Shown: positions 33,248 through 63,938, counted from the first letter of the stretch. The stretch: DNA of 64,000 bases from an uncultured Gammaproteobacteria bacterium (GCA_964478235.1 CAYZGX010000005.1:246-64245), one strand, 5' to 3'. The notes: generated from the sequence alone by a model not told the origin. A program made the numbers and translations.

Positions 33248-33265
33248 AGATACATACAGTATACT

Positions 33266-34636
33266 ATGTATTATCGCGTCAAACAACTCACCCTTATTCT
33301 CGGCGATTTGAGCATGCTCTATGCCGGTTTTTTTATTGGCGTCTATGTGCGCTATGGCGGTCAGCCGCTTCCGGGAATTGTAGAAGGCCTTCTCCCCCAC
33401 CTGAGCTTTCTGTTTGTTGGTGCCTTGAGCATTCTTTTTATTATCGGCCTCTACGACATCGGCAAAAACAGAAACACCGCAGGATTTTTCAAAAAAATAC
33501 TTATCTCCGCCGTTATTTGGATGATGCTCGCCGTTATCTTCTTCTATACTAACACCACTCAAAACGTTACCCCAAAAACCACCCTAGCCCTTGTTACCTT
33601 ATTTAGTTTTGGCTTCATCGCTTTGTGGCGCGCTTTATATAACCAATTCATTTCTACAGCTTTTCTCACCACTAAAGTTATTTTTGCCGGCGCTGTGGCC
33701 GAAACAATCGAAGTGATGAAACTGCTCACCTCTGGACGAGAACACGGCTACGAAGTTTTGGGCTATGTTAGTAAATCAGCTCAAGCTGAACTTGGCGATT
33801 TGCCACACCACACCACCATCAACGGACTTATTAAAAAAGTTGGCTTTCCTGAACTCATCGTCGTTTCACCACCACTCACCAATAACCAAGCAGTTCTGAA
33901 CGAACTCTACGAAGCAATTTTCCGCCAAACGAGCGTCGTGATGCTCAGTGATTTTTATGAGCAACTTTTTGGTCGCGTCCCGTCATTTATCTTTTCCGAA
34001 AGCTGGTTTATCACCAATCTACGCGAACAACAGAAAAAAATATATGACCGTCTGCGCATTTTCCTAGACTACGCCGCAGCGATTCTTATGGGTGCCTTCT
34101 TTGTTGTCACCTTCCCACTCGTCGCTCTCGCTATCAAACTAAGCTCTCGCGGACCAGTTCTTTTCCGCCAAGTGCGCATCGGTCGGGGTGGTCAAAAATT
34201 CACTATCGTGAAATATCGCACAATGCAGGCACTCAGCTCTGACGGTAGCGCCGAAGTAGCTGGCCCAGAATTTGCCAAAATTGGCGACAGTCGCGTCACC
34301 GCTGTTGGCACACTTCTCCGCCGGACTCGCATTGATGAAATCCCTCAATTTTGGAATATCCTGCGTGGCGAAATGGGGCTCATCGGCCCACGCCCTGAGC
34401 GACCAGAGTTTGTTGAACAACTTACTCAAGAAATGCCATTCTACACTCTCCGCCACCTGATTAAGCCAGGGCTCACTGGCTGGGCACAAGTACAACACTC
34501 CTATTACGGCACCCTGTCAGAAAATCTCCTCAAGCTTCAATATGACCTCTATTATGTGAAGCACCGCGGTCCGCTGATTGACCTCTCTATTGCTCTCAAA
34601 ACCATCAACGTCCTCGCTCGTTTCATGGGACGCTAA
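33266..34636 (+). CDS. polyprenyl-phosphate hexose-1-phosphate (sugar) transferase, WbaP/CpsE family
   Basis: 4-5 N-terminal TM helices, then the bacterial sugar transferase domain (GPVLFRQVRIGRGGQKFTIVKYRTM, DEIPQFWNILRGEMGLIGPRPERPEF); alternative start at 33314. Confidence 0.9.
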   Translation: MYYRVKQLTLILGDLSMLYAGFFIGVYVRYGGQPLPGIVEGLLPHLSFLFVGALSILFIIGLYDIGKNRNTAGFFKKILISAVIWMMLAVIFFYTNTTQNVTPKTTLALVTLFSFGFIALWRALYNQFISTAFLTTKVIFAGAVAETIEVMKLLTSGREHGYEVLGYVSKSAQAELGDLPHHTTINGLIKKVGFPELIVVSPPLTNNQAVLNELYEAIFRQTSVVMLSDFYEQLFGRVPSFIFSESWFITNLREQQKKIYDRLRIFLDYAAAILMGAFFVVTFPLVALAIKLSSRGPVLFRQVRIGRGGQKFTIVKYRTMQALSSDGSAEVAGPEFAKIGDSRVTAVGTLLRRTRIDEIPQFWNILRGEMGLIGPRPERPEFVEQLTQEMPFYTLRHLIKPGLTGWAQVQHSYYGTLSENLLKLQYDLYYVKHRGPLIDLSIALKTINVLARFMGR

Positions 34637-49055: not shown

Positions 49056-50246
49056 TTACACGATCATATCCCAGACATACTGGGCGACATTATTGGTTTT
49101 ACCAATCAAAGGCATGTGATGCAGATTGATAAACGGCACACCATTACACTCGATAATCCCCCATTTCTGCCCACCTGGATCTTTGGTAACATCGGCAATG
49201 ATGAAGTCAAAACCAATCAACGGGTCGCCAACTACCTTGGCTGCAGCTTCAAGTACCTCTTTGATAGCCGGATGTGTTTCGTCGGTTATTTCATAACTTG
49301 ACCCACCATACGACACTCCAATTTTTTCAGTCATATCAATCGTCGTGCCGGCAGGCAAGACTGTTCCTAACGTATAACCACTACGCGCCAAAAAATCGAG
49401 CGTCACCGGTGTAACCGGAATATCCTTAACTGGCGCAACCTTAAGAGTATTTTTTATCGTCACGAGCTCAGCAATTGTTTTAACTCCATCACCTGTCACT
49501 CGAGGCGGATCACCGCCCAAAACACCGCGCAAACGCCCATCAATCATCGTCCCGCGATAGACACTGCCCACCAAATGTTCCTCCACCACCACCCAATGAC
49601 ATAATTGTTTAGCGATAGTAAACGCTTCTCGAAGTTGATCTTCGGTATAAATAAAGGTTGTAGTATGACGCCCCCGCGAACCCAAGCGAGGCTTCACAAT
49701 CACCGGCTTTGAAGCCGTCGCAAACCAAGCTCGCGCCATTTCAAAATTAGAAAATCCACCACCTTGCGGAGCAGGCAAACCAGCTTCGCGCAGTCGAGTT
49801 TTCAAAATCGCTTTATCGTCCATCCACACGAGCGCTCGATTATCCACCTTTTTTGGACGAGGCAAACCATTAAAGTATAACGTCTTATCGTTTATTTTCG
49901 CTCGATAAAAATCTATCGGTCGCCCCATAAACTCAGCGCCTTCCATCGGTATCCCCCGCCGCTCCGCATCCTCCCAGAGCACATTCGCTCGAGCGATAGT
50001 GCATTTTTTCCTATCAGCATAAAAACGCACCAAGCCAACCAACCGAAACGAATGAAGCATACCATAAAGCACCAGATCAGTAAGCCAATTAAAAAATCGC
50101 CCAAACAACGAAGTGGCGAGAAAATAATTAAATGGTGTCATGACAACTACCAAAGTAGAGTTCACCCACGTGAGCGTGTGTGGTACCGGATTATTTCCGC
50201 AATACAAACATTTAGCTGGCATAAACAATCGGCAAAAGAGATTCAA
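49056..50246 (-). CDS. ATP-grasp ligase (RimK/cyanophycin-synthetase-like) with N-terminal TM segment
   Basis: ATP-grasp blocks VIVKPRLGSRGRHT, EEHLVGSVYRGTMIDG, GFDFIIADVT...IIECNGVPFINLH. Confidence 0.65.
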   Translation of the reverse strand: MNLFCRLFMPAKCLYCGNNPVPHTLTWVNSTLVVVMTPFNYFLATSLFGRFFNWLTDLVLYGMLHSFRLVGLVRFYADRKKCTIARANVLWEDAERRGIPMEGAEFMGRPIDFYRAKINDKTLYFNGLPRPKKVDNRALVWMDDKAILKTRLREAGLPAPQGGGFSNFEMARAWFATASKPVIVKPRLGSRGRHTTTFIYTEDQLREAFTIAKQLCHWVVVEEHLVGSVYRGTMIDGRLRGVLGGDPPRVTGDGVKTIAELVTIKNTLKVAPVKDIPVTPVTLDFLARSGYTLGTVLPAGTTIDMTEKIGVSYGGSSYEITDETHPAIKEVLEAAAKVVGDPLIGFDFIIADVTKDPGGQKWGIIECNGVPFINLHHMPLIGKTNNVAQYVWDMIV

Positions 50247-51615
50247 AAGGCTGAGACGGCAAAACCGGCTTTTCTCCTTGAACGATAGTATAGAACTCAG
50301 GCATCAAATTGTCGAGCGCTACCCCAAGAGGCAAGGTGCGAAGAGCGTCAGACATCGTCCGAGCAGTGGTCTGGTCGCCATACAGCATCAAATCAAGGGC
50401 GGTCGCGAGGACTCGTTCTTCCGTCTTCCCACCCGCTATATAACAAGCTATATCAGAGCTCAAAAAGTCAGCCCGCACGCTAGTCACTACCGTATCAAAG
50501 CATCCCATTTCAGCAAGAAGCGCTGACCAGGCGTCGCGCAATTCTGGCAAGTAATCAACTTGGCTAAACCCGCCGCCACAGGTGAGACCATAATAAAAAC
50601 TAAGGACAATAAACGACAGCGCCATGCTCGGCATCAAGACACCGGCTTGGAGCGCTTCGCCGACGGCTTCGGGCGTGAGCGCAACTTCCACCGTACCATC
50701 ATGCGACACTAGCTGACCATCTTTGATGATCAGTGGAATACGAAGAGTTTTGTATAACCCCCAAAACAAATACGTCCCCCGCTGAGTGAGCGAGGTAAAC
50801 GAGCCCACCAACCCGTCAAAATGACGAACAAAGGCATCGCGCCACAGAGGGTTAAACAGTAATTCAAAAATAACTGTCGGCGTTTGCAAATGAAAAGAAA
50901 CAATCAGATCAGCCACCATTCGCTCCTGAGGAATATAGAGCATATTAGTGGACTGTTCGCCCGGCACTTGTTTCCACAAAATATAATTAACCAAACTTAA
51001 TTGATCGGCAAACGACCCTTGCATCACCACTGCTGGAGAAGCAAACACTCGCTCCAGCGCATACGACGGCGCCGAAGGTAGCAACGCTTCACATTCTAAA
51101 GTAAATCGCTCCAAATCATCCAAGGTATACGGAAACAAGCCATACACCGACCCAGCGCGATATTTCCACGGCAAAACATGCGCCCGAGATTCTTCGAGCG
51201 TCGCCGTATGCCAAAAAACACCACGGGGAAACGAGGAATTATTCAAAGAGATACTAGCGCAAGAAAAAACAATCACGTTATTACATCCGCGCGACCGATT
51301 CACCAGCGCTTGCGCAGTAGAACCACTCACCACAAAGGGATGGCACACTGGGGCATGGTGTTCGGCTGTAGAAACATACCACTGCTCCTCGAGCTGAAGT
51401 GCTGCTTCGCGCGCCACCGACGAGCCAAACAAACGAGTCGCCTCATGTTCAAAAACCGATAACAATTCCTGCTTTCGCTCTTTTGGGACAACAGTCGGCG
51501 CTGACCAGGCACTATCAAAATACGAAAAAACGCTCATGTCACCATGTTCACGAATAATCTTTTTAAGCCCCGGCTTATGTACCAAGACCACGCGCCGTAC
51601 TTCGTCGAGTGTCAT
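50212..51615 (-). CDS. hypothetical 467-aa protein, translationally coupled to the ATP-grasp gene
   Basis: Long ORF with no recognisable motif; its 3' end overlaps the ATP-grasp ORF start by 35 nt. Confidence 0.5.
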   Translation of the reverse strand: MTLDEVRRVVLVHKPGLKKIIREHGDMSVFSYFDSAWSAPTVVPKERKQELLSVFEHEATRLFGSSVAREAALQLEEQWYVSTAEHHAPVCHPFVVSGSTAQALVNRSRGCNNVIVFSCASISLNNSSFPRGVFWHTATLEESRAHVLPWKYRAGSVYGLFPYTLDDLERFTLECEALLPSAPSYALERVFASPAVVMQGSFADQLSLVNYILWKQVPGEQSTNMLYIPQERMVADLIVSFHLQTPTVIFELLFNPLWRDAFVRHFDGLVGSFTSLTQRGTYLFWGLYKTLRIPLIIKDGQLVSHDGTVEVALTPEAVGEALQAGVLMPSMALSFIVLSFYYGLTCGGGFSQVDYLPELRDAWSALLAEMGCFDTVVTSVRADFLSSDIACYIAGGKTEERVLATALDLMLYGDQTTARTMSDALRTLPLGVALDNLMPEFYTIVQGEKPVLPSQPFESLLPIVYAS

Positions 51616-51629
51616 AGGCTACGCTAGTA

Positions 51630-52976
51630 TTATCTAAACGAAGAGATAAAATCATGAACGCGGGTATCGAGCCAAACATGCTCTGGACCAACTGGGCGTT
51701 TGAGTACCAAGCCCTCAAGCGATGTGGCACGAGACAGTGCAACATATAATTGCCCCGGAGAAAATGTCCCTCGCCCGATATCCACAATCACATTATCAAA
51801 CGTTTTACCCTGACTTTTATGAATCGTAATCGCCCAGGCCAAACGCATTGGGTATTGAGTAAACGATCCCACCGATTCTGATTCAATCTTGCCAAGATCG
51901 CGATTAAAACTAAACGAGTAAATATCCCATTGATGACGCGTCACTCGGACCGTCTCCCCTGTTTCGAGCTCCACCGACAAAATCTGTGGTGCTCGTTTAT
52001 CTGTTGTATCATCTTCCACACTCTTAATCACCCCAACCGTGCCATTAATCCAGCGCCCCGATACATCATTGTTAAGCATCATAACCTGCGCCCCCACCTT
52101 AAGATGAAGTTCGCTCTCTGTTGGTAAATATTTAGCGTCAAATGTCCCCTGTGTATCCCCGCGATATACCAGCTCCTGACCTTTGAGCCGAGCCAGTGCT
52201 TCGTAGTTAATTTCATCAGCCGCTTTGTTGGTGGTGGTGAGTGTTACGTACACATTATTTTTCGGCGGAACAAACGATCTATCCAAACGCTTGTTAAGAG
52301 CCGTATACACACTTTGGTCAGCTGTGTTGGTTCGGACAGCGTTAAGTAGGGCAATAAAAGCGGCATCACGTTGACGATACACTTTTTCTAATTCCACACA
52401 CTCCATTTTGAGCGGATCAACTGCAAATAAATCACGCTTCTTCGGACTAATCGCATGCGCTGAGAAAAAATACGGACTTTCATAATGCTCACGAAACGCC
52501 GACGATTCATCGTTGGTAGTCACCGGTGGCAACTGATAGAGGTCGCCGATAAAAATCATTTGCACTCCACCAAATACCATCCCCTTCTTTGGACCATGTA
52601 GGCGCAAAAAAGTATCAACACAATCAAGCACATCAGCTCTGACCATGGAGATTTCATCAATCACGATAGCTTGTAATTTTCGATAGAGCTCATCGCGCCC
52701 ACCCACTTTAATCTTGCGCACTTTTTCCACGGTAATATCTGGTTTGAAACGAAAAAATGAGTGGATAGTTTGTCCAGCAATATTCACCGCCGCCACCCCC
52801 GTTGGAGCGAGGAGAACGACATTTTTTACCGTATGTTTTTTAAAATGATTGAGAAGCGTGGATTTCCCTGTGCCAGCTCGCCCCGTGACAAACACATGTT
52901 TAGTAGTGTTTTCCATGAGATGCAGGGCCTCTTGAAAAGCCTCGTTCAGATCAACAGTCGTTTTGAGTCGTGCCAT
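51630..52976 (-). CDS. PIF1/RecD-family SF1 DNA helicase
   Basis: Walker A GRAGTGKST, LAPTGVAA, VIDEISMV, QLPPV, C-terminal ALSRA motif characteristic of Pif1-like helicases. Confidence 0.8.
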   Translation of the reverse strand: MARLKTTVDLNEAFQEALHLMENTTKHVFVTGRAGTGKSTLLNHFKKHTVKNVVLLAPTGVAAVNIAGQTIHSFFRFKPDITVEKVRKIKVGGRDELYRKLQAIVIDEISMVRADVLDCVDTFLRLHGPKKGMVFGGVQMIFIGDLYQLPPVTTNDESSAFREHYESPYFFSAHAISPKKRDLFAVDPLKMECVELEKVYRQRDAAFIALLNAVRTNTADQSVYTALNKRLDRSFVPPKNNVYVTLTTTNKAADEINYEALARLKGQELVYRGDTQGTFDAKYLPTESELHLKVGAQVMMLNNDVSGRWINGTVGVIKSVEDDTTDKRAPQILSVELETGETVRVTRHQWDIYSFSFNRDLGKIESESVGSFTQYPMRLAWAITIHKSQGKTFDNVIVDIGRGTFSPGQLYVALSRATSLEGLVLKRPVGPEHVWLDTRVHDFISSFR

Positions 52977-53002
52977 ATCGTTCCACTATACACTAAGTAT
53001 TC

Positions 53003-53257
53003 TTAATCGCCAAACAGGGCTTCTTTTTCTGCTCGACGCAGGCGCTTTATAGCCACCTCCCGTTTCAAAGCCCCCGAGCGAGTGGCAAATTTCTGAGAAT
53101 AGACGAGAGTCACCGGTCGACGAGCGCGGGTATACTTCGCCCCTCGTGACGACGTGTTGTGGGCGACCACACGACTAGCTATATCAGTGGTAAAACCAGT
53201 ATACAGCGTTCCATCGTGACAACGCACAATGTACACATAAAAGACTTTTTTAGACAT
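53003..53257 (-). CDS. GIY-YIG nuclease domain protein (UPF0213-like)
   Basis: FYVYIVRCHDGTLYTGFTTDIASRVVAHN...AKYTRARRP...LVY matches the GIY-YIG consensus. Confidence 0.8.
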   Translation of the reverse strand: MSKKVFYVYIVRCHDGTLYTGFTTDIASRVVAHNTSSRGAKYTRARRPVTLVYSQKFATRSGALKREVAIKRLRRAEKEALFGD

Positions 53258-53262
53258 ACCCA

Positions 53263-53460
53263 CTACCTCTTCAAAAGCTCCATAATAAACGCTCTCGTCC
53301 CCGCAGCAAATTTACCGGTCCCTTTGGTGAGGCCAAGCGGGGTGAGAATTGACTTAGCGTTCGCTTCTTGGAAGCGAATAAGGGCGAGTCGAGTGGCCGA
53401 GCCAAAATAGTTAGTTTCTTTACCTGGTGACCCTGGGCCAGATTTAGCGACGGTGAAACC
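53263..53460. repeat. about 200-bp segment near-identical (about 3 mismatches) to 56919-57116 (3' ends of the two giant genes)
   Basis: Direct comparison of the two sequences; divergence rises sharply further upstream. Confidence 0.85.
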
Positions 53461-56400
53461 AAGAGCGTTTAACACTCGCTGCAACAATCGAACCTGGGTG
53501 TCATTCATACCGAGCTGCAATACTTTGGTGAGACGAGCGGTGCCAAGAGCCTGCTTGAGAGCGTTAATCGACAGAGTTTGAATGGAGGGTACCAAAGGAA
53601 CAACTGGTTTAGCCATCGTTGAGGTTGCAGGGGATGTTGAAGTAGCTGGAGTAATAATTTGCACCGTTGTCGTTGTGGTCGGAACAAAAACCTCTTGGTC
53701 AGAATAGCCAACAAGAGGTGGACTTGAACCGCCATAGGACGGAGTTGCAACAGTCGTCGCCGAAGGAGGAACGAAAGACAATGTCACGTTGCTTAGAACT
53801 GGACTTGTAACCCCACTCGAAGAAGTTAAATAGGCTTTATACTGAACAAATTGATCGTCAACACCATCAGTAAAAGCTGAATTAAGCACTTCTCCACCAG
53901 AAGTAACAAAATACGTTGAGGTGGTATTATCTGGGCCAACCCATTCAGCAGCATCCAATGTGGTAGTAGTATTCCCCGTTCTAATCTGAAAACGAACCGT
54001 CGTGCTAGTTGAGGTGGCCGCCGTCCATTCCAAGCTATCTATAACACTTGCCGAATTACTACTGTCGTAGACCGAAGAGATTAATGTGCCAGACGAAGTG
54101 TACGACACAAAATTAAAAGTGAGATTCTTTAATTGTGGTGATTTGGTTGTGTCAGAAGTAGACAAAAATGCTTTATACTTTACATACTTTGCAGCCGTAG
54201 TCAGCCCCTCAGCCAAAGTTGAAGAACCGGTTGTAAAATAGGTACTCGCTGTTCCGTCAGTTCCAAAAAAACTTGAGTAACTAACATTGTCTGTTGATGT
54301 GGCGATCTGTAAACGAAGAGAGTCACTACCAATAGATCTAGGCGTTGAAGATGACCAGCTGAAACTGTACGGTCGAGTACCGTCAAAAGAAAAAGGGGCT
54401 GAAGTAAAATTACCAGAAGACTGATACGTTTTTTGATTAATGACGTATTTAATGTAGGCAGTACTTGTATTGCTGGTATACAGATGATAGTAAAAAGAAC
54501 TATGATCTGCATCGGGTATAAGGTACCCGCACGCCCCAGTAGGAAAAGGCATCTGCGGTAACACTTGCCAAGCAGAAGAGGTCTCAGATAGTGGGTGTCT
54601 CCAAAAACCGGTGGCCGCACTAGTACCTTGAACAACATACGCAAACCCATCAAGAATAGTGAGGGAGGCACAGGAACTGAGCGTGCCAGGCAGAGTTGAA
54701 AATGTATCCCAAGCACTCGATGTGTTAGCCAACGTATGGCGATAAAACGCCGTACCCCCATTACGCATAACATACAAATAGTCATCATCAATGCCCATAT
54801 ATTTGTTACCAACAAAAGTAAAGATATTTGCTGGAGTATTAGCTAGTGATTCCCATGGAGTTGAGGTGTTGGTCAACACATGACGATAGGTACTCGACGT
54901 ATTTCCACCACGCAGTACGTAAACATGATCATTGCTAAAAGAAATAGACGCAGCATTACCAACAGCTGCTGGTAAATCAACAAAAACATCCCATGGAGAA
55001 GAGGTGCTGTTGATATCGCGTCGATACAAACTTTTTGCAGAACCAACTGCTCCAGGAAGATAGTAGAAATAGCCATCTCGTATTTCCGCTGAGCCGTATT
55101 GCCCTGTAGTTGTTGGTAGAGTAATGTAAGATTCCCAAGCACTCGACGTATTGGCTTTAGTATGCCGATACAGGGCGTCAGCTCGTAGTGCTGCTAAAAA
55201 ATAAACATAATTATCGTCACTTAAAATAGCCACACCGTTGCTAACGGTAGCAACTGTTGTGGGAAATCCACTAGTTGTTGTAATAGTGGCAAAAATTTCC
55301 CAAGGGGTTGAAGTAAGAGCGTAGTCGCGCCGATAAAACTGAGAGCTGCTCGCACCAGCATACATATAGTGATCATCAACATGAAAAGAGATGCCGGATA
55401 AAAAAGGAAGGTTCTGGATAAAATGATTATCTAGCCCACCAATCCAATTACTTGAAGTGTTGGTGAGCACATGTCGATACATAGCGGTATTACCACCGCC
55501 TTGTATAACATGAATAAATGAATCATCAACTGCCAAAGCAGCGCCTGCTCCCGGCGTTGCAGGAAGTGAAGAAAAGAGCTCCCAAGCCGTAGATGTTTCT
55601 GACAAAGTATGTCTAAGAAATTGCGCAGCACCGCTGCGTAACATGTAAATATAATTAGCATCGACAGCAATAGCCCCACCAGCCGAAAGACCATACGGCG
55701 TAGTGGAAGCAAAAAAATCCCAAGGTGTTGAGGTATTGCTTAATTCGTGACGATATGTGGTCGTAGCAAAGCCAGTGGTCGTACCGAGAAGAATATATAT
55801 ATAATTAGCATCAATCGCAGCCGTACTTCCCGTTGTAACAATTTTAGGTAGCACCGCAAAAGGTTCCCAAGCGGTCGATGTTGCCGACGTTGTGTGACGA
55901 TACGACGTAGTCGCATTACCTGTAAACACATACACATAGTTAGAATCGGCCAACAATTGACCGCCAGTACTAACGCTGGCTGGCAATACAGTAAATGATT
56001 CCCACGATGTAGAAGTATTGGCCAGAGTGTGGCGATAAAATGCTGTACTACTTCCTCGTAAAACATAGAGGTATTGACTGTCAATTGCCAGGCCAGTTCC
56101 AGTACCTGTCGCCCCAGGCAGAGCTGTAAATGATTGCCATCCAGCCGAAGTATTAGTTATCGAATGACGGTAGACATCGGTACTAGTACCACGTAATACA
56201 TACAAATAATCTGAATCAATTGCCAAAAAGACGGTCGAACCAACTGTTGCTGGTAAATCAGAATACGAAACCCAGGTATTATTAGTTGTATCGAAACGAC
56301 TCATCTTACCAACAAAGCTGGTGCTGGTTGAGTGTAGTACGTACACATACGTACCCGTGACCGCCATATCACTAATACCAACCGTGCCAGGGATTGGCGG

Positions 56401-56811
56401 ATAGGGAACTTCAAAAGCATCAACCTGCACTTCAGTAGTCGTAGCGAGAGAAATAAAACCAGTGGCATTCAAATTAGAATACCGTAATTGCAACTGACTA
56501 AGTGTACCATTCAAAAAACCACCGCCTGTCACCACGCCAGACAAAGTTGAAGTAACATCATCAACAGCAGGAAAATAAGACGCTGAAAGACGCAAATTTC
56601 CAATATTTCCAAAATCTATATTCGTTGAAGTTGAAAAATACAACCACCCCGTCCGATCACCCGGATCAACTGCTGCCGTCGAAGTTGTGTCCCCACTCCA
56701 ATCAGCTTGATAAAATGCCACTGAAGTAGCGGCATAAACAATTTGTTGAACAGAGACAAAAAAAGCTAAAAAAGAGAGGAGACCTAATAAAAAAACACGA
56801 GGAAAAGACAT
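53263..56811 (-). CDS. giant secreted/anchored Kelch-like-repeat surface protein with C-terminal peptidoglycan-binding (PG_binding_1-like) domain
   Basis: 1182 aa. N-terminal signal/TM. More than 16 copies of an approximately 46-aa unit (YLYVLRG-x-ST-x-YRH-x-L-x-NTS-x-W-E/D-x-F-x-x-LP-x-G-x-A-x-D) resembling divergent Kelch blades. Two jelly-roll-like middle modules. Thr/Pro linker. C-terminal VLQLGMNDTQVRLLQRVLNALGF...GKETNYFGSATRLALIRFQEANA. Confidence 0.85.
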   Translation of the reverse strand: MSFPRVFLLGLLSFLAFFVSVQQIVYAATSVAFYQADWSGDTTSTAAVDPGDRTGWLYFSTSTNIDFGNIGNLRLSASYFPAVDDVTSTLSGVVTGGGFLNGTLSQLQLRYSNLNATGFISLATTTEVQVDAFEVPYPPIPGTVGISDMAVTGTYVYVLHSTSTSFVGKMSRFDTTNNTWVSYSDLPATVGSTVFLAIDSDYLYVLRGTSTDVYRHSITNTSAGWQSFTALPGATGTGTGLAIDSQYLYVLRGSSTAFYRHTLANTSTSWESFTVLPASVSTGGQLLADSNYVYVFTGNATTSYRHTTSATSTAWEPFAVLPKIVTTGSTAAIDANYIYILLGTTTGFATTTYRHELSNTSTPWDFFASTTPYGLSAGGAIAVDANYIYMLRSGAAQFLRHTLSETSTAWELFSSLPATPGAGAALAVDDSFIHVIQGGGNTAMYRHVLTNTSSNWIGGLDNHFIQNLPFLSGISFHVDDHYMYAGASSSQFYRRDYALTSTPWEIFATITTTSGFPTTVATVSNGVAILSDDNYVYFLAALRADALYRHTKANTSSAWESYITLPTTTGQYGSAEIRDGYFYYLPGAVGSAKSLYRRDINSTSSPWDVFVDLPAAVGNAASISFSNDHVYVLRGGNTSSTYRHVLTNTSTPWESLANTPANIFTFVGNKYMGIDDDYLYVMRNGGTAFYRHTLANTSSAWDTFSTLPGTLSSCASLTILDGFAYVVQGTSAATGFWRHPLSETSSAWQVLPQMPFPTGACGYLIPDADHSSFYYHLYTSNTSTAYIKYVINQKTYQSSGNFTSAPFSFDGTRPYSFSWSSSTPRSIGSDSLRLQIATSTDNVSYSSFFGTDGTASTYFTTGSSTLAEGLTTAAKYVKYKAFLSTSDTTKSPQLKNLTFNFVSYTSSGTLISSVYDSSNSASVIDSLEWTAATSTSTTVRFQIRTGNTTTTLDAAEWVGPDNTTSTYFVTSGGEVLNSAFTDGVDDQFVQYKAYLTSSSGVTSPVLSNVTLSFVPPSATTVATPSYGGSSPPLVGYSDQEVFVPTTTTTVQIITPATSTSPATSTMAKPVVPLVPSIQTLSINALKQALGTARLTKVLQLGMNDTQVRLLQRVLNALGFTVAKSGPGSPGKETNYFGSATRLALIRFQEANAKSILTPLGLTKGTGKFAAGTRAFIMELLKR

Positions 56812-56817
56812 AGTAGA

Positions 56818-56827
56818 GGGGGGGGGG
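56818..56827. repeat. homopolymeric G10 (C10 on coding strand) tract 6 nt upstream of the giant-protein-1 start codon
   Basis: Read directly: ...CCTG-C10-TCTACT-ATG on the minus strand. Confidence 0.9.
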
Positions 56828-56915
56828 CAGGAACAACCAGAAAAATAAAAATCGCTTACTTATTTTATCAAAAATAATGGGAAGAAGCAATTGGTCAAGA
56901 TTTTTAAACTAAACG

Positions 56916-59900
56916 CTAGCGCCGAAGCAAGTCCATAATAAACGCTCTCGTCCCCGCAGCAAATTTACCGGTCCCTTTGGTGAGGCCAAGCGGGGTGAGA
57001 ATTGACTTAGCGTTCGCTTCTTGGAAGCGAATGAGGGCGAGTCGAGTAGCCGAGCCAAAATAGTTAGTTTCTTTACCAGGTGACCCTGGGCCAGATTTAG
57101 CGACGGTGAAACCAAGAGCGTTCAGAGCGCGCTGGAGAAGGCGGACTTGTGAATCCACAGTGCCCGTTTGAAGAACTTTAGTGAGGCGAGCAGTGCCGAG
57201 GGCTTGTTTGAGAGCGACGACGGGTGCGAGGGCTACCCCTGGCGATGTAGGTTGAGTTGGGATAACTGGTGCGACTTCTGGTAAGACTGGTGACACAACT
57301 GGTTCAGTGGTTGTTGGGGCTACCGGTAGTGTTGAAGTGGCAGGGGTAGTGGTTGGAGCGACGACTACCACGGTAGTCGTCGGCGTAGAGACAGCTGCCT
57401 CAAGATCTGAGTAGCCAATCAAAGGCGGGCTTGAACCGCCGTATACTGGAGCTGAATTGTTCGGAGGAATAAACGACAGAGCAACATCACTCAAAACAGG
57501 ACTCGTCGCTCCACTTGAAGAAAAGAGAGCTTTGTACTGTACAAATTGATCGCCAGCCCCGTCGGTAAATGCTGAATTAAGTGTTTCACTACCCGAAGTA
57601 GAAAAATACGTTGAAGAAGTATTGTCTGGACCAACCCATTCAGCCGCGTCCAAAGTTATTGTGCTATCCCCTGTTCGAATTTGAAAACGAAGGGTGGCGC
57701 TCGCTGAGGTAGTGCCTGTCCACTCTAAACCAGAAATCTTACTTCCAGAATCATTACTATTATACACTGACGAAATAAGCGTACCGCTCGCCGAATAGGC
57801 CGAATAATTAAAGGTAATATCTTCTAAACGCGGAGAAAAATCAGTATTATCAGTGCTCAAATACGCTTTGTATTTAAGATATTGTGTAGGGGCAGTTATT
57901 GCGCCGGTCAAAGTTGTCGACCCGGTCGTAAAATAAGTACCAACTGTCCCGTCGGGGCCAAAATAACTGGAATAAGTACTATTATCTGACGAAGTAGCTA
58001 TTTGTAAACGAAGCGCTGAGCTTCCGGTGACAACCGGAGTTGAAGATGACCAGCGAACACTCTCAAGACGAGCTGCGCCAAGTGACAAAGCGGGTGAAGT
58101 AAAATCACCAGAAGAAGAATAAACTAAATCATTAACAACAAATCTAAATATTAAATCAGACGAGCTACCACAAATAAGATAAATAATATCTTTATCCTGC
58201 GAAAAAACCATACCACCACCATTACTCACACTGCATGGTTGAGCTTGAAGAACCTCCCAAGCAGTAGAGGTGCTCGCCAGAGTATGTCGCCAAAAACCAA
58301 CCCCCGAACTATTCCCTTGTAACACATACGCATAAGTATCGGTCAGAAGAACAGTCGCTCGAGAAGCAGTGTTACCCGGCATAGCAGTAAACGATTCCCA
58401 AGCACTAGAAGTGTTAGAAAGCACATGCCGATAAAACCCCGTACTCCCACCTTGTACAACATACAAATGAGTATCGTTTATAGCCATCAACGAATTTGAT
58501 CCAGCGGCGACAGAAACATTTCCTGGCAAATTAGTGAAAGTATCCCACGCCGTGGAAGTGGAATTAAGAGCGTGGCGGTAGGTGCTTGAAGTAGAGCCAC
58601 CGCGCACCACATACACATAGTCGTTATCAAAAACAAACGAAGCTCCTCCGCCCATAGCAGCGGGCAGTGCCGTAAATGACTCCCACGCAGACGAAGTTAC
58701 CGCCGAAAGATGGCGGTACAACCCAGTTTTTTCAGCTGTATTTCCTTGAAGGAAATAAAGGTAATCACCGTTAACAGCTATTGAGGCGGTTGACCCTGTT
58801 GAAGTTGGAGCTGCAGCATACGAATCCCACGAAGATGTCGGTGTAGCCGACAAAGATCGACGATAAAAACCGGTTGTCGACCCAAGCATGGCATAGGCAA
58901 AATTTTCATCAACAACCAACGAAGTTCCATTGCCCAAGGTAGCGGCCGGCGCTGTTGAAGACGCCCAAGCCGAAGTCGTACTTATCAAATCATGCCGAAA
59001 AAATCCTATTGCCGGAGAAGAACCAGCTAATACATACAAATTGTTTTTATTAATAGAAAAGGTAGGCAAAGCACCGCCACCAACAAGAGCGGGCAGTGGG
59101 GGGAAATTTGGCGATGTTGACCCAATCCAAGCGCTTGATGTGTCAGATATAGCATGTCTCGCTATACTTGTTGGATATGCAAATACATGCAAAAAATCAG
59201 TGCCAAGAGATAAGCCAGCGGCTGTAGAAGAAAACGCCACGGTAGATGTTATTGTATCCCAAGCGCTTGAAGTATTAGCTGTGGTATGGCGATATACCTG
59301 AGCCGCTGAGCCACGGGAGAAAAATAAATAATTAGCATTAACCTCCAAACCACTGACAGTGGCGGCAGCGGCCGGAAGTGTTGTAAACGCCTCCCAAGCT
59401 GAAGATGTATTTGTTAAATCATGACGCAAAGTTGTAGTTCCCGCTCCACCAGCTGCCGTGCTAGCAATAACATACAAATAATTAGCATCGAGAGCTGCCT
59501 GCGAACCAGAAGTCACTACATACGGTAAATTAGTGAAAGCTTCCCACGAAGTAGAAGTGCTTGTTTTTGAATGACGATAGGTTGTGCTAACACTATTGCC
59601 CGGAAGAACATACAGATAATTGGCATCGACCAATAATTTACCCCCACTACTCAATGTCGAAGGAAGAACTGTAAATGAATCCCATGAAGCCGAGGTATTT
59701 GAAACAGCATGACGATAAATATTTGTACTAGAACCACGAGCTACATAGAGATAAGTTTCATCGACAACTACAGCAGCGGCTGTCCCAACTGAGCCGGGCA
59801 GCGCAGTGAACGACTCCCACCCTGCCAAAGTATTAGAAATAGCATGACGATAAAAACTCGTACCAGTACCTAGCAACAGATAGATATAAGTGTCATCAAT

Positions 59901-60551
59901 AGTCATGGTCACATTAGTACCAGCAGCTGACGGCGAATCAGTGTAAGAAGCCATTACATTAGCGGAGTAATCATAGCGGTGCACCTTAGCTACAAAACTT
60001 GTACTCGTAACCTGCAGTATATATATATAAGTGCTTGTCGCAATAATTTTTCCATTCAATCCCATTTGACCGGGGATAGCTGGCACAAGACTATCAAATG
60101 CATTAATTGCAACTTCAGTCGTAGTTGCAAGCGCAACATAACCAGTCGTATTTAAGCTCGAGCGCAGAAGCTGAACCTGATTGAGGGTGCCACTCAAAAA
60201 CCCACCACCAAAAGCAAGGCCAGAGTAAGTAGAGGTGATATCATCAACAAACGAAAACGTTGATGAAGTCAGGCGAAGAGCGTTCGTGATGGTAAAATCA
60301 AGGTAGGTTGAAGTAGAATAGCCATTCCAACCAGTACGATCGGTTGGATCACTGGCGGCAGTTGAGGTAACTCCCCCACTCCAACTTTCCTGATAAAAGG
60401 CAACTGATGTGGCGGCAAGAGCAATTTGTTGGGCTAAAAATACAAAACCAAGAATAGCTACAAAACCAAAAATAAGACTATTTTTAATGGTCTCGGAAAA
60501 GAATCTAGCGATAGATAATTTTGAGGAAATTTTAGATAATAGCAATTTCAT
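56916..60551 (-). CDS. giant secreted/anchored Kelch-like-repeat surface protein, paralogue of 53263-56811, with C-terminal peptidoglycan-binding domain
   Basis: 1211 aa; same architecture and the same YRH/NTS/W/LP/LYV repeat; C-terminal about 70 aa nearly identical to the downstream paralogue. Confidence 0.85.
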   Translation of the reverse strand: MKLLLSKISSKLSIARFFSETIKNSLIFGFVAILGFVFLAQQIALAATSVAFYQESWSGGVTSTAASDPTDRTGWNGYSTSTYLDFTITNALRLTSSTFSFVDDITSTYSGLAFGGGFLSGTLNQVQLLRSSLNTTGYVALATTTEVAINAFDSLVPAIPGQMGLNGKIIATSTYIYILQVTSTSFVAKVHRYDYSANVMASYTDSPSAAGTNVTMTIDDTYIYLLLGTGTSFYRHAISNTLAGWESFTALPGSVGTAAAVVVDETYLYVARGSSTNIYRHAVSNTSASWDSFTVLPSTLSSGGKLLVDANYLYVLPGNSVSTTYRHSKTSTSTSWEAFTNLPYVVTSGSQAALDANYLYVIASTAAGGAGTTTLRHDLTNTSSAWEAFTTLPAAAATVSGLEVNANYLFFSRGSAAQVYRHTTANTSSAWDTITSTVAFSSTAAGLSLGTDFLHVFAYPTSIARHAISDTSSAWIGSTSPNFPPLPALVGGGALPTFSINKNNLYVLAGSSPAIGFFRHDLISTTSAWASSTAPAATLGNGTSLVVDENFAYAMLGSTTGFYRRSLSATPTSSWDSYAAAPTSTGSTASIAVNGDYLYFLQGNTAEKTGLYRHLSAVTSSAWESFTALPAAMGGGASFVFDNDYVYVVRGGSTSSTYRHALNSTSTAWDTFTNLPGNVSVAAGSNSLMAINDTHLYVVQGGSTGFYRHVLSNTSSAWESFTAMPGNTASRATVLLTDTYAYVLQGNSSGVGFWRHTLASTSTAWEVLQAQPCSVSNGGGMVFSQDKDIIYLICGSSSDLIFRFVVNDLVYSSSGDFTSPALSLGAARLESVRWSSSTPVVTGSSALRLQIATSSDNSTYSSYFGPDGTVGTYFTTGSTTLTGAITAPTQYLKYKAYLSTDNTDFSPRLEDITFNYSAYSASGTLISSVYNSNDSGSKISGLEWTGTTSASATLRFQIRTGDSTITLDAAEWVGPDNTSSTYFSTSGSETLNSAFTDGAGDQFVQYKALFSSSGATSPVLSDVALSFIPPNNSAPVYGGSSPPLIGYSDLEAAVSTPTTTVVVVAPTTTPATSTLPVAPTTTEPVVSPVLPEVAPVIPTQPTSPGVALAPVVALKQALGTARLTKVLQTGTVDSQVRLLQRALNALGFTVAKSGPGSPGKETNYFGSATRLALIRFQEANAKSILTPLGLTKGTGKFAAGTRAFIMDLLRR
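56919..57116. repeat. second copy of the near-identical 3' segment
   Basis: See 53263-53460. Confidence 0.85.
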
Positions 60552-60687
60552 TAAAACAGATACTAAACCACTGCTAGCATATCAAAAAAACAAGGTCAAA
60601 ACAATGGAAAAAAGGGGGATAAAAAGACACACCTCTCGTTAAAAAAGAGGTGCGTCTTGCTGATTGGAAGCCTGCTGAAAAAAAATC

Positions 60688-61098
60688 TTAGGAAACAGCG
60701 TCCTTTTTGAGCAAAAGAGGTAAAAGACGATTTTTACCCTGCCACAAGAAGTACAAATTAAGAAGAAGCATTACATTGCCCATAACTGCTCCGCCAGTGA
60801 GGAGTCCACCATCGAGAAAAGCATGAAAACCAACGATATTAAGCGTAATCGGTAAAAGAAGAAAAGCGGCGAGAGCTGTTCGATCTATCCAGATAAGCAC
60901 CAAGCTGATCGCAAAAACCAAGGACATGAGGTAGTTAATGTACTTTCCCTGCATCAGCGCCTCAATAAAGGCAAACGCTTCTTTTGAGGTGTACATATCA
61001 GCTGTTGGCGGTGGGAAAATCCCTAGCACCCCCAGCAGTGGCATAATTAAAATCAGACTCAAAAGAACCTTGAGAAAGATAGTCAGATATTTTTTCAT
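60688..61098 (-). CDS. small polytopic membrane protein (DoxX-like?), function unknown
   Basis: About 136 aa from ATG 61098 (MKKYLTIFLKVLL...), 3-4 TM; the ORF-track extension to 61155 begins with TTG. Confidence 0.5.
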   Translation of the reverse strand: MKKYLTIFLKVLLSLILIMPLLGVLGIFPPPTADMYTSKEAFAFIEALMQGKYINYLMSLVFAISLVLIWIDRTALAAFLLLPITLNIVGFHAFLDGGLLTGGAVMGNVMLLLNLYFLWQGKNRLLPLLLKKDAVS

Positions 61099-61155
61099 AG
61101 AGTATATAAAATAATTAACACATATAGTGTACAGGACAGGGTATAAATAGGGCAA

Positions 61156-61239
61156 GTGAGAGCGCTTCGCTATTCAGAGATTCGGCTTCGCCTCTCGGTG
61201 AGAGCGCTTCGCTATTCGAAGATTCGGCTTCGCCTCTCG
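61156..61239. repeat. 2 x 42-bp tandem direct repeat (2 mismatches) inside a GC-rich (about 65-70%) 190-nt leader/spacer
   Basis: GTGAGAGCGCTTCGCTATTCAGAGATTCGGCTTCGCCTCTCG repeated at 61156-61197 and 61198-61239; each unit has internal short hairpins (GGC-GAA-GCC, AGCG-AAG-CGCT on the minus sense). Confidence 0.85.
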
Positions 61240-61342
61240 TCGACTTCCGTCTCCTCGGGCTAGCCACCGCCTCGCGGTCGCGCTCGCCCGACTGCGTCGC
61301 GCGACATCGCTCCGGCGTTCGAATCTCTCCTCTTTCTTCTAC

Positions 61343-61378
61343 AAAACAAATGACACCCACTAGGGTGTCATTTGTTTT
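61343..61378. terminator. rho-independent terminator (12-bp perfect stem) downstream of the coiled-coil/2TM gene
   Basis: CAAATGACACCC-ACTA-GGGTGTCATTTG flanked by A-run and T-run. Confidence 0.8.
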
Positions 61379-61407
61379 GCGGGGATGGGGAGACTTCCTT
61401 GAAACCC
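61379..61407. repeat. 29-nt exact dispersed repeat copy 1 (GCGGGGATGGGGAGACTTCCTTGAAACCC)
   Basis: Identical to 62977-63005. Both copies lie in the 3' UTR of a minus-strand gene, between the stop codon and a terminator. Confidence 0.9.
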
Positions 61408-61444
61408 GGTTACGGAACGAAGGCCTCGTGTCGTCCTAGGTTCC

Positions 61445-62530
61445 CTACTCGGAATCGGCTTCCTTATCCTCACCACTGACAAGTTTCTTGATTGGACCAA
61501 GAATCTTATCGAATAGCGGCGGGTCCTCGCGATGCGTTTCGTTGTCCAGTGTACCGCTTGGGTTGAAAGCGGAGGATGTCACCATGTTACTTAAGAGAGA
61601 AACGAGAATCTCCCTGTTTTCATCGACTTCTCCCAGTTGGTCGAGCTGCTTTTTGTAACCGATGTAGGACTTCGCAACACTTTCCTTATGTGCATATTCC
61701 TGGGCAAGGCGCTTGTTCTGACTCTGTTGCTTGCTAGCAAAATGAGCCAACCAAACGGCTGGAATAAAAAATGGCAATCTTGCGATCACACGCGAAAGGG
61801 TCTCTGTGAGAGTAGCCCCGATAACAACACTCGGCTTGAGGCTGAGGATTGCATACAGCGCCATGGAAGCAATCGTAACGATGAACGTGCCTGTCCAAAA
61901 CTTATTCGGCTTATCATAGCTCGTCTTCTGGTTTTCGTAGACAGCCGCCAAACCCGCACTGGTTGCACCAGGCAACAACCCCTCAATTTGTTCGATTAGC
62001 GAATCGTATCGCTTCTTAGTGTCCAGTCGCAACTGCTCGAGTTCGGTCTTGTTGGATTCGATCTCTTGTTTGAGTCCTCCCACTACTTTGCCTGCATCAT
62101 CAGGAATACCAAATATTTTGGCATAGTACTCGTCGAATTCCTTCTTCGCCTTCTCGACGGACTTGAGGATACCATCAAACTCAGCCGACGCATCTCGAAT
62201 ACCCTGTTCGATGGATACTTCGTCCCCCTCGCCAGAAAAGACTTCGTCGTGAAACTCGCTAATATCTGCGCTAGCAGTTTTCACTGCATCCCATTTAGTT
62301 TTGATATCAACCGATGCCTCGTCAATCTGAGTTTTGACACTTTTTTGGTTTGCCGAATCCGTCAACAAGTAATCCTTGTAAGTGGTGAGGTCGAGAATCA
62401 GCTTGTTGCCGACCGTTCTTAACTCATTTACGGCTCTGGAGATCTGAATTTTCTGACTTCGCGGCAACTCTTCAGCGACGGACAGAGCCGGTGCTGGTAT
62501 CTCAAGAGGGGGAAGTGGTGCGTTTTCCAT
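61445..62530 (-). CDS. hypothetical protein: about 200-aa N-terminal coiled-coil, 2-TM hairpin, about 90-aa C-terminal tail
   Basis: Heptad-rich N-terminus (KTELEQLRLDTKKRYDSLIEQIEG), two helices FWTGTFIVTIASMALYAILSL and LPFFIPAVWLAHFA separated by a short loop. Confidence 0.6.
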   Translation of the reverse strand: MENAPLPPLEIPAPALSVAEELPRSQKIQISRAVNELRTVGNKLILDLTTYKDYLLTDSANQKSVKTQIDEASVDIKTKWDAVKTASADISEFHDEVFSGEGDEVSIEQGIRDASAEFDGILKSVEKAKKEFDEYYAKIFGIPDDAGKVVGGLKQEIESNKTELEQLRLDTKKRYDSLIEQIEGLLPGATSAGLAAVYENQKTSYDKPNKFWTGTFIVTIASMALYAILSLKPSVVIGATLTETLSRVIARLPFFIPAVWLAHFASKQQSQNKRLAQEYAHKESVAKSYIGYKKQLDQLGEVDENREILVSLLSNMVTSSAFNPSGTLDNETHREDPPLFDKILGPIKKLVSGEDKEADSE

Positions 62531-63056: not shown

Positions 63057-63938
63057 TTAGCGTACCGGCAAAATCTTTCCTGCTGCGACTTGGGCCTCAA
63101 AGGTGTCGAGCAAAAAATCGCATACGGTCTTTGCTGCATTCACGACGAGCTTGGCATGCCGACGAGCAGGCCGATAGAGTAGTGGATGCGAATCGCTCAT
63201 TCTGTTTCGGATAGGAGCAAGTCCAGAAACAATGTTGGTCAACCCGGTAAGAACGAGATGAAACGGTTGGTTTTCAGGCGTCTTTGGATCGATGTTCAGA
63301 GCGATCTGGACACGTCTCATTAATTGGCCCAGTTCGCCATTGTAGGGAGGTGGTGAGAGGACGGCACGTCGTTCCATCTCCTGAAGGACAGTCTCAACTA
63401 AAGTTCTTGCCGAAGTGATCGCACCAGTAAAATCATCGCCGAGCAGGCGCGTTTCCGATTTTTCAACGTGTTCATGGATAAATTCGTGTGATAACGGATC
63501 CAACCCGCCGCTCCTCGCTTCCATAGAAACGAGCCCTTCGTCCGCACGTCGAACTACATAGCCACTTTTCCCCTCTAGAAGTGACCACCCATCTCGCTCA
63601 AGATAACGCCTAACGTAGTCTACCGCCGTGTCGATCGAAATATTGTGGTCCTGAAAATACGCAGGGTCGAGGGCTGCCGCAACCATCGGCTCAAAATGTG
63701 GAGTTCCGACTAGGGAGCGTACACGTTCCTCGGCGAGCATCCATCGTGATTTTCCACCGCTTCCCGAATAAACATCATTGAAGCCGAACTCATTGAAGAA
63801 CCGCAAAATCTCCGGTCCCGTCCGATAGGGTGCAACGGCCGGCTTGTGAACTGACACCCAGTCTCCTGTAATTACTTTTTGAATCGCCTCGATTGTCTTT
63901 TCCGAAACCATGGGCTTCGCGGTCTGTGAGTTTGTCAT
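63057..63938 (-). CDS. Abi_C/HEPN-like abortive-infection-type protein (AbiJ-like architecture)
   Basis: C-terminal block IVSGLAPIRNRMSDSHP contains an Rx4-6H motif (RNRMSDSH), as in HEPN/Abi_C domains; N-terminal region is unassigned. Confidence 0.55.
   Translation of the reverse strand: MTNSQTAKPMVSEKTIEAIQKVITGDWVSVHKPAVAPYRTGPEILRFFNEFGFNDVYSGSGGKSRWMLAEERVRSLVGTPHFEPMVAAALDPAYFQDHNISIDTAVDYVRRYLERDGWSLLEGKSGYVVRRADEGLVSMEARSGGLDPLSHEFIHEHVEKSETRLLGDDFTGAITSARTLVETVLQEMERRAVLSPPPYNGELGQLMRRVQIALNIDPKTPENQPFHLVLTGLTNIVSGLAPIRNRMSDSHPLLYRPARRHAKLVVNAAKTVCDFLLDTFEAQVAAGKILPVR

Follow-up and report, generated by a model that had tools for sequence, protein, structure and literature searches.

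What would a bacterium with a reduced genome do with two large, repeat-rich surface proteins encoded side by side? This question is raised by a 64,000-nucleotide (nt) stretch of DNA deposited under the name of an uncultured Gammaproteobacteria bacterium (GCA_964478235.1, CAYZGX010000005.1:246-64245), the whole of which was analysed and is here called the window. Calling of open reading frames (ORFs) placed copy A at 53263..56811 (1182 aa) and copy B at 56916..60551 (1211 aa), both on the minus strand, with a spacing of 104 nt and a combined length of 7185 nt, or 11.2% of the window. The predicted products (~122-124 kDa) align end to end with 52% identity (1123 bits) and are full-length paralogues. 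Each consists of a signal peptide, an N-terminal module of ~113 aa, a repeat region, two further modules of ~113 aa, a Thr/Pro-rich linker and a terminal PG_binding_1 domain, and the modules were found in no further ORF of the window. We hold, with moderate confidence, that A and B are secreted envelope proteins that dock on the cell wall and present a variable binding head, acting in an adhesin-like manner or as a surface coat.

The preliminary description of this DNA had reported two large tandem proteins amounting to 11% of the window, with a signal or anchor, two jelly-roll-like modules, a Thr/Pro stalk and a C-terminal PG_binding_1-like domain. Each of these elements was recovered, and both ORFs run exactly between the limits it had assigned to them.

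The Kelch-type core and its flanking modules

The repeat region spans aa 141-790 of copy A (54442..56391, minus strand) and aa 160-804 of copy B (58140..60074, minus strand). A hidden Markov model (HMM) of the repeat recovered 12 strong units in each protein, with independent E-values of 1e-12 to 1e-24. Copy A has an additional divergent N-terminal unit (1.8e-4) and a remnant, giving 13 units of 45-55 aa plus terminal strands, and copy B has a divergent first unit. There are 13-14 blades per protein, where more than 16 copies had been counted in the preliminary description. Its consensus (LYVLRG..YRH.L.NTS..W..F..LP) and unit of ~46 aa were correct; the units are spaced 44-55 aa apart and follow (Y/F)(L/V)Y(V/L)xxG ... 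(Y/F)RH ... NTSxxW ... LP. No tandem repeats were found at the DNA level within either gene, the repeats being visible at the protein level alone, and they are therefore ancient.

To which family does this unit belong? The Pfam model NANM (PF24996) matches copy A with 60.9 bits and copy B with 56.9 bits, both above its gathering score of 45, and an orthologue passes too, the matches covering only ~73/350 profile positions, or one or two blades each. The sole sequence match of the family profile in the PDB is the Kelch domain of KLHL22 (E=3e-5), where YV(L)xG lies opposite YVxGG, Y(RH) opposite Y(R/D) and W..LP opposite W..LP. Moreover, relatives of the same architecture reach up to 97 bits with Kelch_6, 67 with Kelch_4 and 55 with Kelch_1; those scored on the Kelch models (P0030, P0035, P0036, P0043 and P0050) align over the whole core in one stretch. 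The unit itself has the hydrophobic strand, the Gly and the spaced Tyr and Trp of a Kelch repeat, with the GG doublet mostly reduced to a single Gly, and the predicted structure has four-stranded blades that close into a propeller. Because of the NANM, KLHL22 and Kelch_6/4/1 matches, we assign the 'YRH' unit to the standard Kelch repeats, as a divergent subfamily. The suspicion of a divergent Kelch or beta-propeller blade in the preliminary description was thus well placed, and its remark that the repeat was of no recognised family is superseded. As an outcome against itself it had named a repeat that resolved to a well-characterised family with a known function; the first half of this came about, since the family is Kelch, and the second did not, proteins of this architecture being so far uncharacterised.

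Known Kelch proteins (NanM/YjhT, Keap1/KLHL and fungal galactose oxidase) share with A and B the ~46-aa unit with its hydrophobic strand, Gly and conserved Tyr and Trp, and, as predicted for A and B, the four-stranded blade. In galactose oxidase, moreover, a seven-bladed Kelch propeller is likewise joined to a galactose-binding-like jelly-roll. However, the blade signature of A and B is Y-R-H...N-T-S..W and not Y-D-P...W, with usually one Gly in place of GG, and the proteins are predicted to carry two tandem propellers (14 blades) and to be extracellular and wall-anchored.

A full-length AlphaFold2 (AF2) model of copy A, built from five sequences, has an overall predicted local distance difference test (pLDDT) score of 53.6 and can be used over aa 150-780, with a pLDDT of ~70-85 and 3-4 strands per unit. 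Extra strands at aa 143-151 and aa 772-790 flank the 13 sequence units, and a low-confidence break lies around aa 459-525. The best Foldseek matches (LRP6, Utp proteins, Gemin5, Aip1 and BT4673) are all tandem double propellers, and the best reading of the model is that the repeat region forms two seven-bladed propellers. The best whole-model matches, namely Aip1/WDR1, Gemin5, Utp21, EML1 and BT4673 (3va6), the last being a double-propeller sensor domain in the periplasm, from hybrid two-component systems of Bacteroides, likewise set two propellers side by side over ~640 residues. However, theirs are built of WD40 or other repeats in cytoplasmic or signalling proteins, and the likeness is at the level of the fold only (5-13% identity).

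The repeats are followed by modules M1 and M2, which in copy A occupy aa 791-902 (54106..54441, minus strand) and aa 903-1016 (53764..54105, minus strand). In copy B they occupy aa 805-917 and aa 918-1030 (together 57462..58139, minus strand) and are 55% and 74% identical to those of copy A. M1 and M2 are duplicates of one another (BLASTP 3e-16; hhalign 98.4%). A model of M2 from a 37-sequence alignment reached a pLDDT of 93.1 and a predicted template modelling (pTM) score of 0.85, with the beta-sandwich fold of the galactose-binding-domain-like superfamily, and these predictions indicate that the middle modules are duplicated jelly-rolls of that superfamily. Sequence hints are weak (F5_F8_type_C with E=3.4e-5 in 2/37 members, CBM_6 with 0.07 and the PDB CBM6 structure 1uy1 with E=0.18); the module could not be assigned to F5_F8_type_C, CBM_6 or CBM32, the window's own modules have no match to F5_F8_type_C, and Pfam does not cover the M module.

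At the other end of the core, each protein has one hydrophobic segment, N-terminal, and no second one, and by inspection it is followed by an AxA-type site (VYA/AT in A and ALA/AT in B, a slash marking the presumed cleavage point). The signal peptide of copy A, aa 1-27 (56731..56811, minus strand), reads MSFPR, a hydrophobic core and QQIVYA before AT; that of copy B, aa 1-46 (60414..60551, minus strand), has a long n-region and contains the sole hydrophobic segment, ending in NSLIFGFVAILGFVFLAQQIALA before AT. The long N-terminus of copy B is retained in its orthologue on a syntenic contig (L002, CAYUBH010000001.1). AxA-type sites were seen by direct reading of A, B, P0004 and P0005. Moreover, in 31 relatives a conserved mature start, AT(Y/S)xFxQxxWSGG, stands shortly behind the hydrophobic segment and the next module begins 22-27 residues past the start of that segment. 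From these features we infer a cleaved Sec-type signal peptide in both proteins.

The mature N-terminus is formed by the ~113-aa N-terminal module (consensus ATYxFxQxxWSGG...TDD...GGGFxNGT), located with its own HMM at aa 28-140 of copy A (56392..56730, minus strand) and aa 47-159 of copy B (60075..60413, minus strand), where it is 61% identical to that of copy A. Its profile (A3) has no counterpart in Pfam or the PDB, the best non-significant matches being 5eo7 (E=0.029) and DUF6160 (1/23 members). A kinship with the middle modules was ruled out (hhalign probability 0.1-0.2%).

The tail, the conservation gradient and the wider family

A Thr/Pro-rich linker of 68 aa (34% Thr+Pro) at aa 1017-1084 of copy A (53560..53763, minus strand), which the model leaves without secondary structure, corresponds to a Thr/Pro/Val-rich one of 83 aa (36% Thr+Pro) at aa 1031-1113 of copy B (57213..57461, minus strand). 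The linkers lead to the PG_binding_1 regions at the extreme C-termini, aa 1085-1182 of copy A (53266..53559, minus strand) and aa 1114-1211 of copy B (56919..57212, minus strand), which are 93% identical to each other and score 30.1 and 31.9 bits with PF01471, above its gathering score of 23. In copy A the model predicts helices in this tail at aa 1083-1088, 1104-1116 and 1170-1181, with pLDDT <50. The only match in a PHROG scan, to an endolysin, is confined to the PG_binding_1 region; we therefore rejected a phage or defence origin for the pair.

The ectodomain and the anchor differ sharply in charge. The former is acidic (isoelectric point, pI, ~5.0), rich in Ser/Thr (27%) and poor in Cys (2 Cys, non-conserved), and the latter is strongly basic (pI 11.4 in A and 11.6 in B). 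N-glycosylation was considered as well, since copy A has 21 NxS/T sequons against 12.4±3.0 in shuffled sequences and copy B 16 against 13.3±3.0. This was not upheld; the excess arises from the NTS motif of the blades and is therefore more likely structural.

They also differ in conservation. Over four pairwise comparisons among paralogues and orthologues, identity was 91-97% in PG_binding_1, 74-88% in M2 and 60-89% in the N-terminal module, and the propellers of the paralogues share 38-51%. Divergence within the propellers is uneven: between A and its orthologue blades 1-4 are 96-100% identical and blades 6-8 47-62%, and between B and its orthologue blades 1-2 are 45-53% identical and blades 9-13 76-89%. 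Judged by these alignments, the propellers are mosaic among orthologues. At the codons of conserved residues, A and B agree at 78% in PG_binding_1 and at ~45% elsewhere, a difference compatible, speculatively, with recombination through the PG_binding_1 segment.

How widespread is this architecture? A word-indexed search with the full protein returned 5 clusters only, and the M-module profile 7 small fragments only, giving an impression of rarity. This was overturned by an exhaustive HMMER profile search, whose yield fell from 6249 proteins at E<=1e-3 through 1753 at E<=1e-10 to 250 cluster representatives at E<=1e-30. Many relatives measure 1500-5600 aa. A module census was made of the best 150 and other fetched proteins, 165 in all. 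About 127/165 contain the M module, usually paired behind a propeller, 76/165 have YRH-type units and 37/165 match the N-terminal module. Several relatives with the whole core (N-terminal module, propellers and M-M) run on into arrays of FN3 and Pur_ac_phosph_N type. Only a handful end in PG_binding_1, most ending in FN3 arrays; because the C-terminal ends vary in this way, the conserved unit is the N-terminal core, with an exchangeable anchor. One relative with the same core, a 1628-aa protein (P0004, NCBI MFA6076442.1) on a 5.4-kb contig, is labelled 'Negativicutes bacterium', and either the family extends beyond the Patescibacteria or the contig is mis-binned.

Proposed function and its alternatives

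The function of the pair has to be considered in its organism. All named close relatives of the LepA protein encoded in the window (75-80% identity) are from 'Patescibacteria group' or 'Candidatus Magasanikbacteria', which indicates that the genome belongs to the Patescibacteria, near the Magasanikbacteria, and agrees with the reduced-genome context assumed in the preliminary description. One of two reference genomes with a relative of A/B is a Magasanikbacteria metagenome-assembled genome. Contig L002 likewise bears the title 'uncultured Gammaproteobacteria bacterium', but it shares synteny with the window and its DnaK falls in the same 90%-identity cluster, and its label looks wrong. Cultivated Patescibacteria are obligate epibionts (PMC11623550). 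The window is otherwise ordinary chromosome, encoding DnaB, ClpB, MurJ, LepA, RecJ, CTP synthase, YidC and HrcA-GrpE-DnaK-DnaJ. Since MurJ is encoded, peptidoglycan is presumably made, and an anchor that binds it makes sense.

The domain architecture and the conservation pattern were observed directly; the localisation, orientation and ligand binding that we infer from them can be put together as follows. The proteins would be exported by Sec and the signal peptide removed after the AxA site. The basic, almost invariant PG_binding_1 domain would then dock non-covalently on the cell's own peptidoglycan, as its domain identity suggests, and the linker of 68-83 residues would span the wall. In this way the acidic ectodomain would be held outward, with the two jelly-rolls, the two seven-bladed Kelch-type propellers and, at the distal tip, the N-terminal module. 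A ligand-binding surface would be formed by the propellers, which are mosaic and diverge fast, and perhaps also by the jelly-rolls and the tip module. Its likeliest ligand would be a glycan or protein carried by a host or a partner cell, and two paralogues would offer two specificities. An invariant basic dock joined to a head that changes fast is what one would expect of a recognition protein tethered to the wall, and a function in attachment or in a surface layer, as sequence features go, is a reasonable supposition.

Several points weigh against this proposal. The genes around the pair (GIY-YIG, Pif1 helicase, a small membrane protein, YidC and the DnaK operon) carry no functional hint. PG_binding_1 could bind the wall of another cell instead of the cell's own. 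Moreover, pLDDT in the AF2 model is <50 in the N-terminal module, M1, the linker and PG_binding_1, which leaves the 7+7 arrangement and overall shape as predictions.

Several known systems bear comparison with A and B. PG_binding_1 is one of the domains accepted as anchoring the surface proteins of monoderms to the wall (PMC5817068; PMC8286594), and the wall-anchored and fibrillar adhesins of monoderms, with PG_binding_1, LysM, SLH or GW anchors, have the same order of signal peptide, distal binding region, spacer and C-terminal wall-binding domain. In A and B the signal peptide (by inspection) and the anchor are present. However, the stalk is just the short Thr/Pro linker of 68-83 aa and two jelly-rolls, where those adhesins have Ig-like repeats in long arrays. 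A double Kelch propeller makes up the head, Kelch or propeller domains being unmentioned in the text of the adhesin paper cited, and the lineage is Patescibacteria. Within that phylum, PilX2 of Saccharibacteria TM7x, a minor pilin with a C-terminal seven-bladed propeller of RCC1 type, is needed for efficient host binding (PMC11623550). It is, by analogy, the nearest functional precedent in the phylum, being likewise a surface beta-propeller of Patescibacteria; its role in host attachment has experimental support. PilX2 differs in having RCC1 repeats, a single propeller and display on a type IV pilus, where A and B have Kelch repeats, two propellers and a wall-binding domain. A search of the literature found no paper joining Kelch repeats with surface proteins of the candidate phyla radiation or Patescibacteria. 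We conclude that A and B belong with the known multidomain, non-covalently wall-anchored surface proteins, here with propeller heads, and that they are good candidates for recognising a host or the environment in an uncultivated lineage of Patescibacteria.

Tandem paralogues are common among S-layer genes. It is conceivable, and was among the options of the preliminary description, though we think it rather improbable, that A and B are structural proteins of a surface layer or envelope coat. They would assemble into a lattice or dense coat that shields the cell, with the propellers providing the lattice contacts instead of binding foreign ligands. The large, acidic, Cys-poor and Ser/Thr-rich ectodomains and the conserved non-covalent wall anchor would suit such a role as well as the tandem arrangement does. 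However, Pfam and NCBIfam scans of A and B found no SLH, CWB2 or other S-layer family, and the relatives are very heterogeneous giants with variable ends, which one would not expect of a unit that forms a lattice. Mosaic divergence like that of the blades, moreover, is also a feature of adhesins.

The long charged n-region of copy B, found in many relatives too and reaching up to ~100 aa or more, resembles a signal anchor, and PG_binding_1 is typical of endolysins and wall-targeting enzymes, as its PHROG match reflects. In an epibiont lineage (PMC11623550), these features allow the whole protein to be turned round, with an uncleaved N-terminal anchor in the membrane and PG_binding_1, on its Thr/Pro tether, gripping host peptidoglycan and so stapling the epibiont to its host. 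We consider this arrangement unlikely. In the sequences read, the AxA-type sites stand right before the invariant mature start, and this spacing is kept in the 31 relatives. Furthermore, PG_binding_1 is missing from most relatives, whose ends are FN3 arrays, so that the conserved working part would be the N-terminal core and not the tail.

Least probable of all, and in our view very unlikely, is a wall-tethered carbohydrate-active enzyme of the Kelch superfamily, be it a NanM-type sialic-acid mutarotase, as suggested by the JGI label of the orthologue cluster ('N-acetylneuraminic acid mutarotase') and by NANM and YjhT as the best Pfam and NCBIfam matches, or a galactose-oxidase-like radical copper oxidase: the Pfam matches are at the level of the repeat only, the NCBIfam scores of 51 bits against a cut-off of 416 for NanM (NF010730) and 49 against 256 for YjhT (TIGR03547) reject either identity, proteins of 1182/1211 aa with ~14 blades in two propellers and four other modules are not one six- or seven-bladed enzyme domain of ~350-390 aa, there is no sign in them of the catalytic apparatus of NanM or galactose oxidase, the two non-conserved Cys leave no Tyr-Cys cofactor evident, and fast propeller divergence would be unusual for an active site. 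On these scores we regard the JGI label as an over-annotation.

Genomic setting, leaders and significance

Upstream of the pair lies the gene for a 155-aa membrane protein, and downstream are those for GIY-YIG and Pif1 helicase. At the syntenic locus of L002 the orthologue of B (70% identity) stands alone and is followed directly by GIY-YIG and Pif1, and the orthologue of A (P0016, in the 77%-identity P0002 cluster) is solitary between a DEAD-box helicase and an M13 peptidase on four metagenome contigs. The tandem A-B arrangement is thus specific to this genome and not conserved. Because L002 has B alone and the orthologue of A stands alone elsewhere, either copy A came to lie beside B in this lineage or L002 has lost it from there.

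In its 5′ leader, copy A has a C10 homopolymer (56818..56827, minus strand; G10 on the plus strand), placed -7 to -16 relative to the ATG. No other homopolymer of the window is as long. In an independent assembly (L001) it is C8, the only indel in 13,384 aligned nt, against 5 substitutions (99.95% identity). The start codon is unchanged with C8 or C10, and C9 or C12 would put upstream TTG codons in frame. No such tract was found at the orthologue loci. The tract may be an expression switch that works by strand slippage, or it may reflect an error in sequencing a homopolymer. A G13 run in a related Magasanikbacteria gene (L003 11864-11916) was set aside, as it abuts a run of N and is probably a scaffold-gap or assembly artefact.

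By eye, an extended -10-like element, TTTTTTG(c/a)TAT(a/g)CT, is conserved ~25-45 nt upstream of copy B (within 60552-60700) and of both orthologue genes (L002/L005). A hairpin with a T run, again by eye, stands before this element at copy B and resembles a terminator of the gene for the 155-aa membrane protein. A promoter and terminator scan of 52900-61500 gave counts at the level of shuffled sequence, and neither A nor B has an evident Shine-Dalgarno sequence ahead of it.

Other features of the window were recorded in passing. Just upstream of the pair, a 293-aa protein (63057-63938, minus strand) that carries an Abi_C (abortive-infection C-terminus) domain adjoins a 361-aa protein with no Pfam match (61445-62530, minus strand), and the two may form a small defence locus. 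A 596-aa protein (1340-3130, minus strand) resembles the TrwB/VirD4 coupling protein or a HerA-like ATPase, a component of type IV secretion or DNA translocation in a reduced genome. A 748-aa subtilase (Peptidase_S8; 31316-33562, minus strand) with a long C-terminal extension is likely secreted or on the surface. Proteins of 734 aa (5416-7620, minus strand) and 467 aa (50212-51615, minus strand) have no Pfam match, and the latter keeps its position beside Pif1 in L002. Scans for tRNAs and Rfam families in the window found nothing.

A bolder version of our proposal would take the N-terminal module, double propeller and paired jelly-rolls as a widespread, as yet unstudied host-recognition device, shared by Patescibacteria with other bacteria that have giant surface proteins. 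In this genome copy A would have been recruited beside the resident B as a second specificity, and slippage in the C8/C10 tract of its 5′ leader would switch or tune it. We give this conjunction little credence; if true, it would mean phase-variable host attachment in an uncultivated epibiont.

In summary, every recognisable part of A and B comes from a known class, no unexpected mechanism is called for and the general significance is modest. The analysis defines two conserved modules absent from Pfam, the N-terminal tip module and the paired jelly-roll, the latter in >100 cluster representatives. Moreover, the automatic names under which the family is filed, "N-acetylneuraminic acid mutarotase" and "fibronectin type III domain-containing protein", are misleading. 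Little is known of how the ultra-small Patescibacteria recognise and hold their hosts, the propeller-bearing pilin of the Saccharibacteria being the only adhesin candidate put to the test. A and B are testable candidates for a second, pilus-independent recognition device, and they lie in a class other than the Saccharibacteria, among relatives of the Magasanikbacteria.

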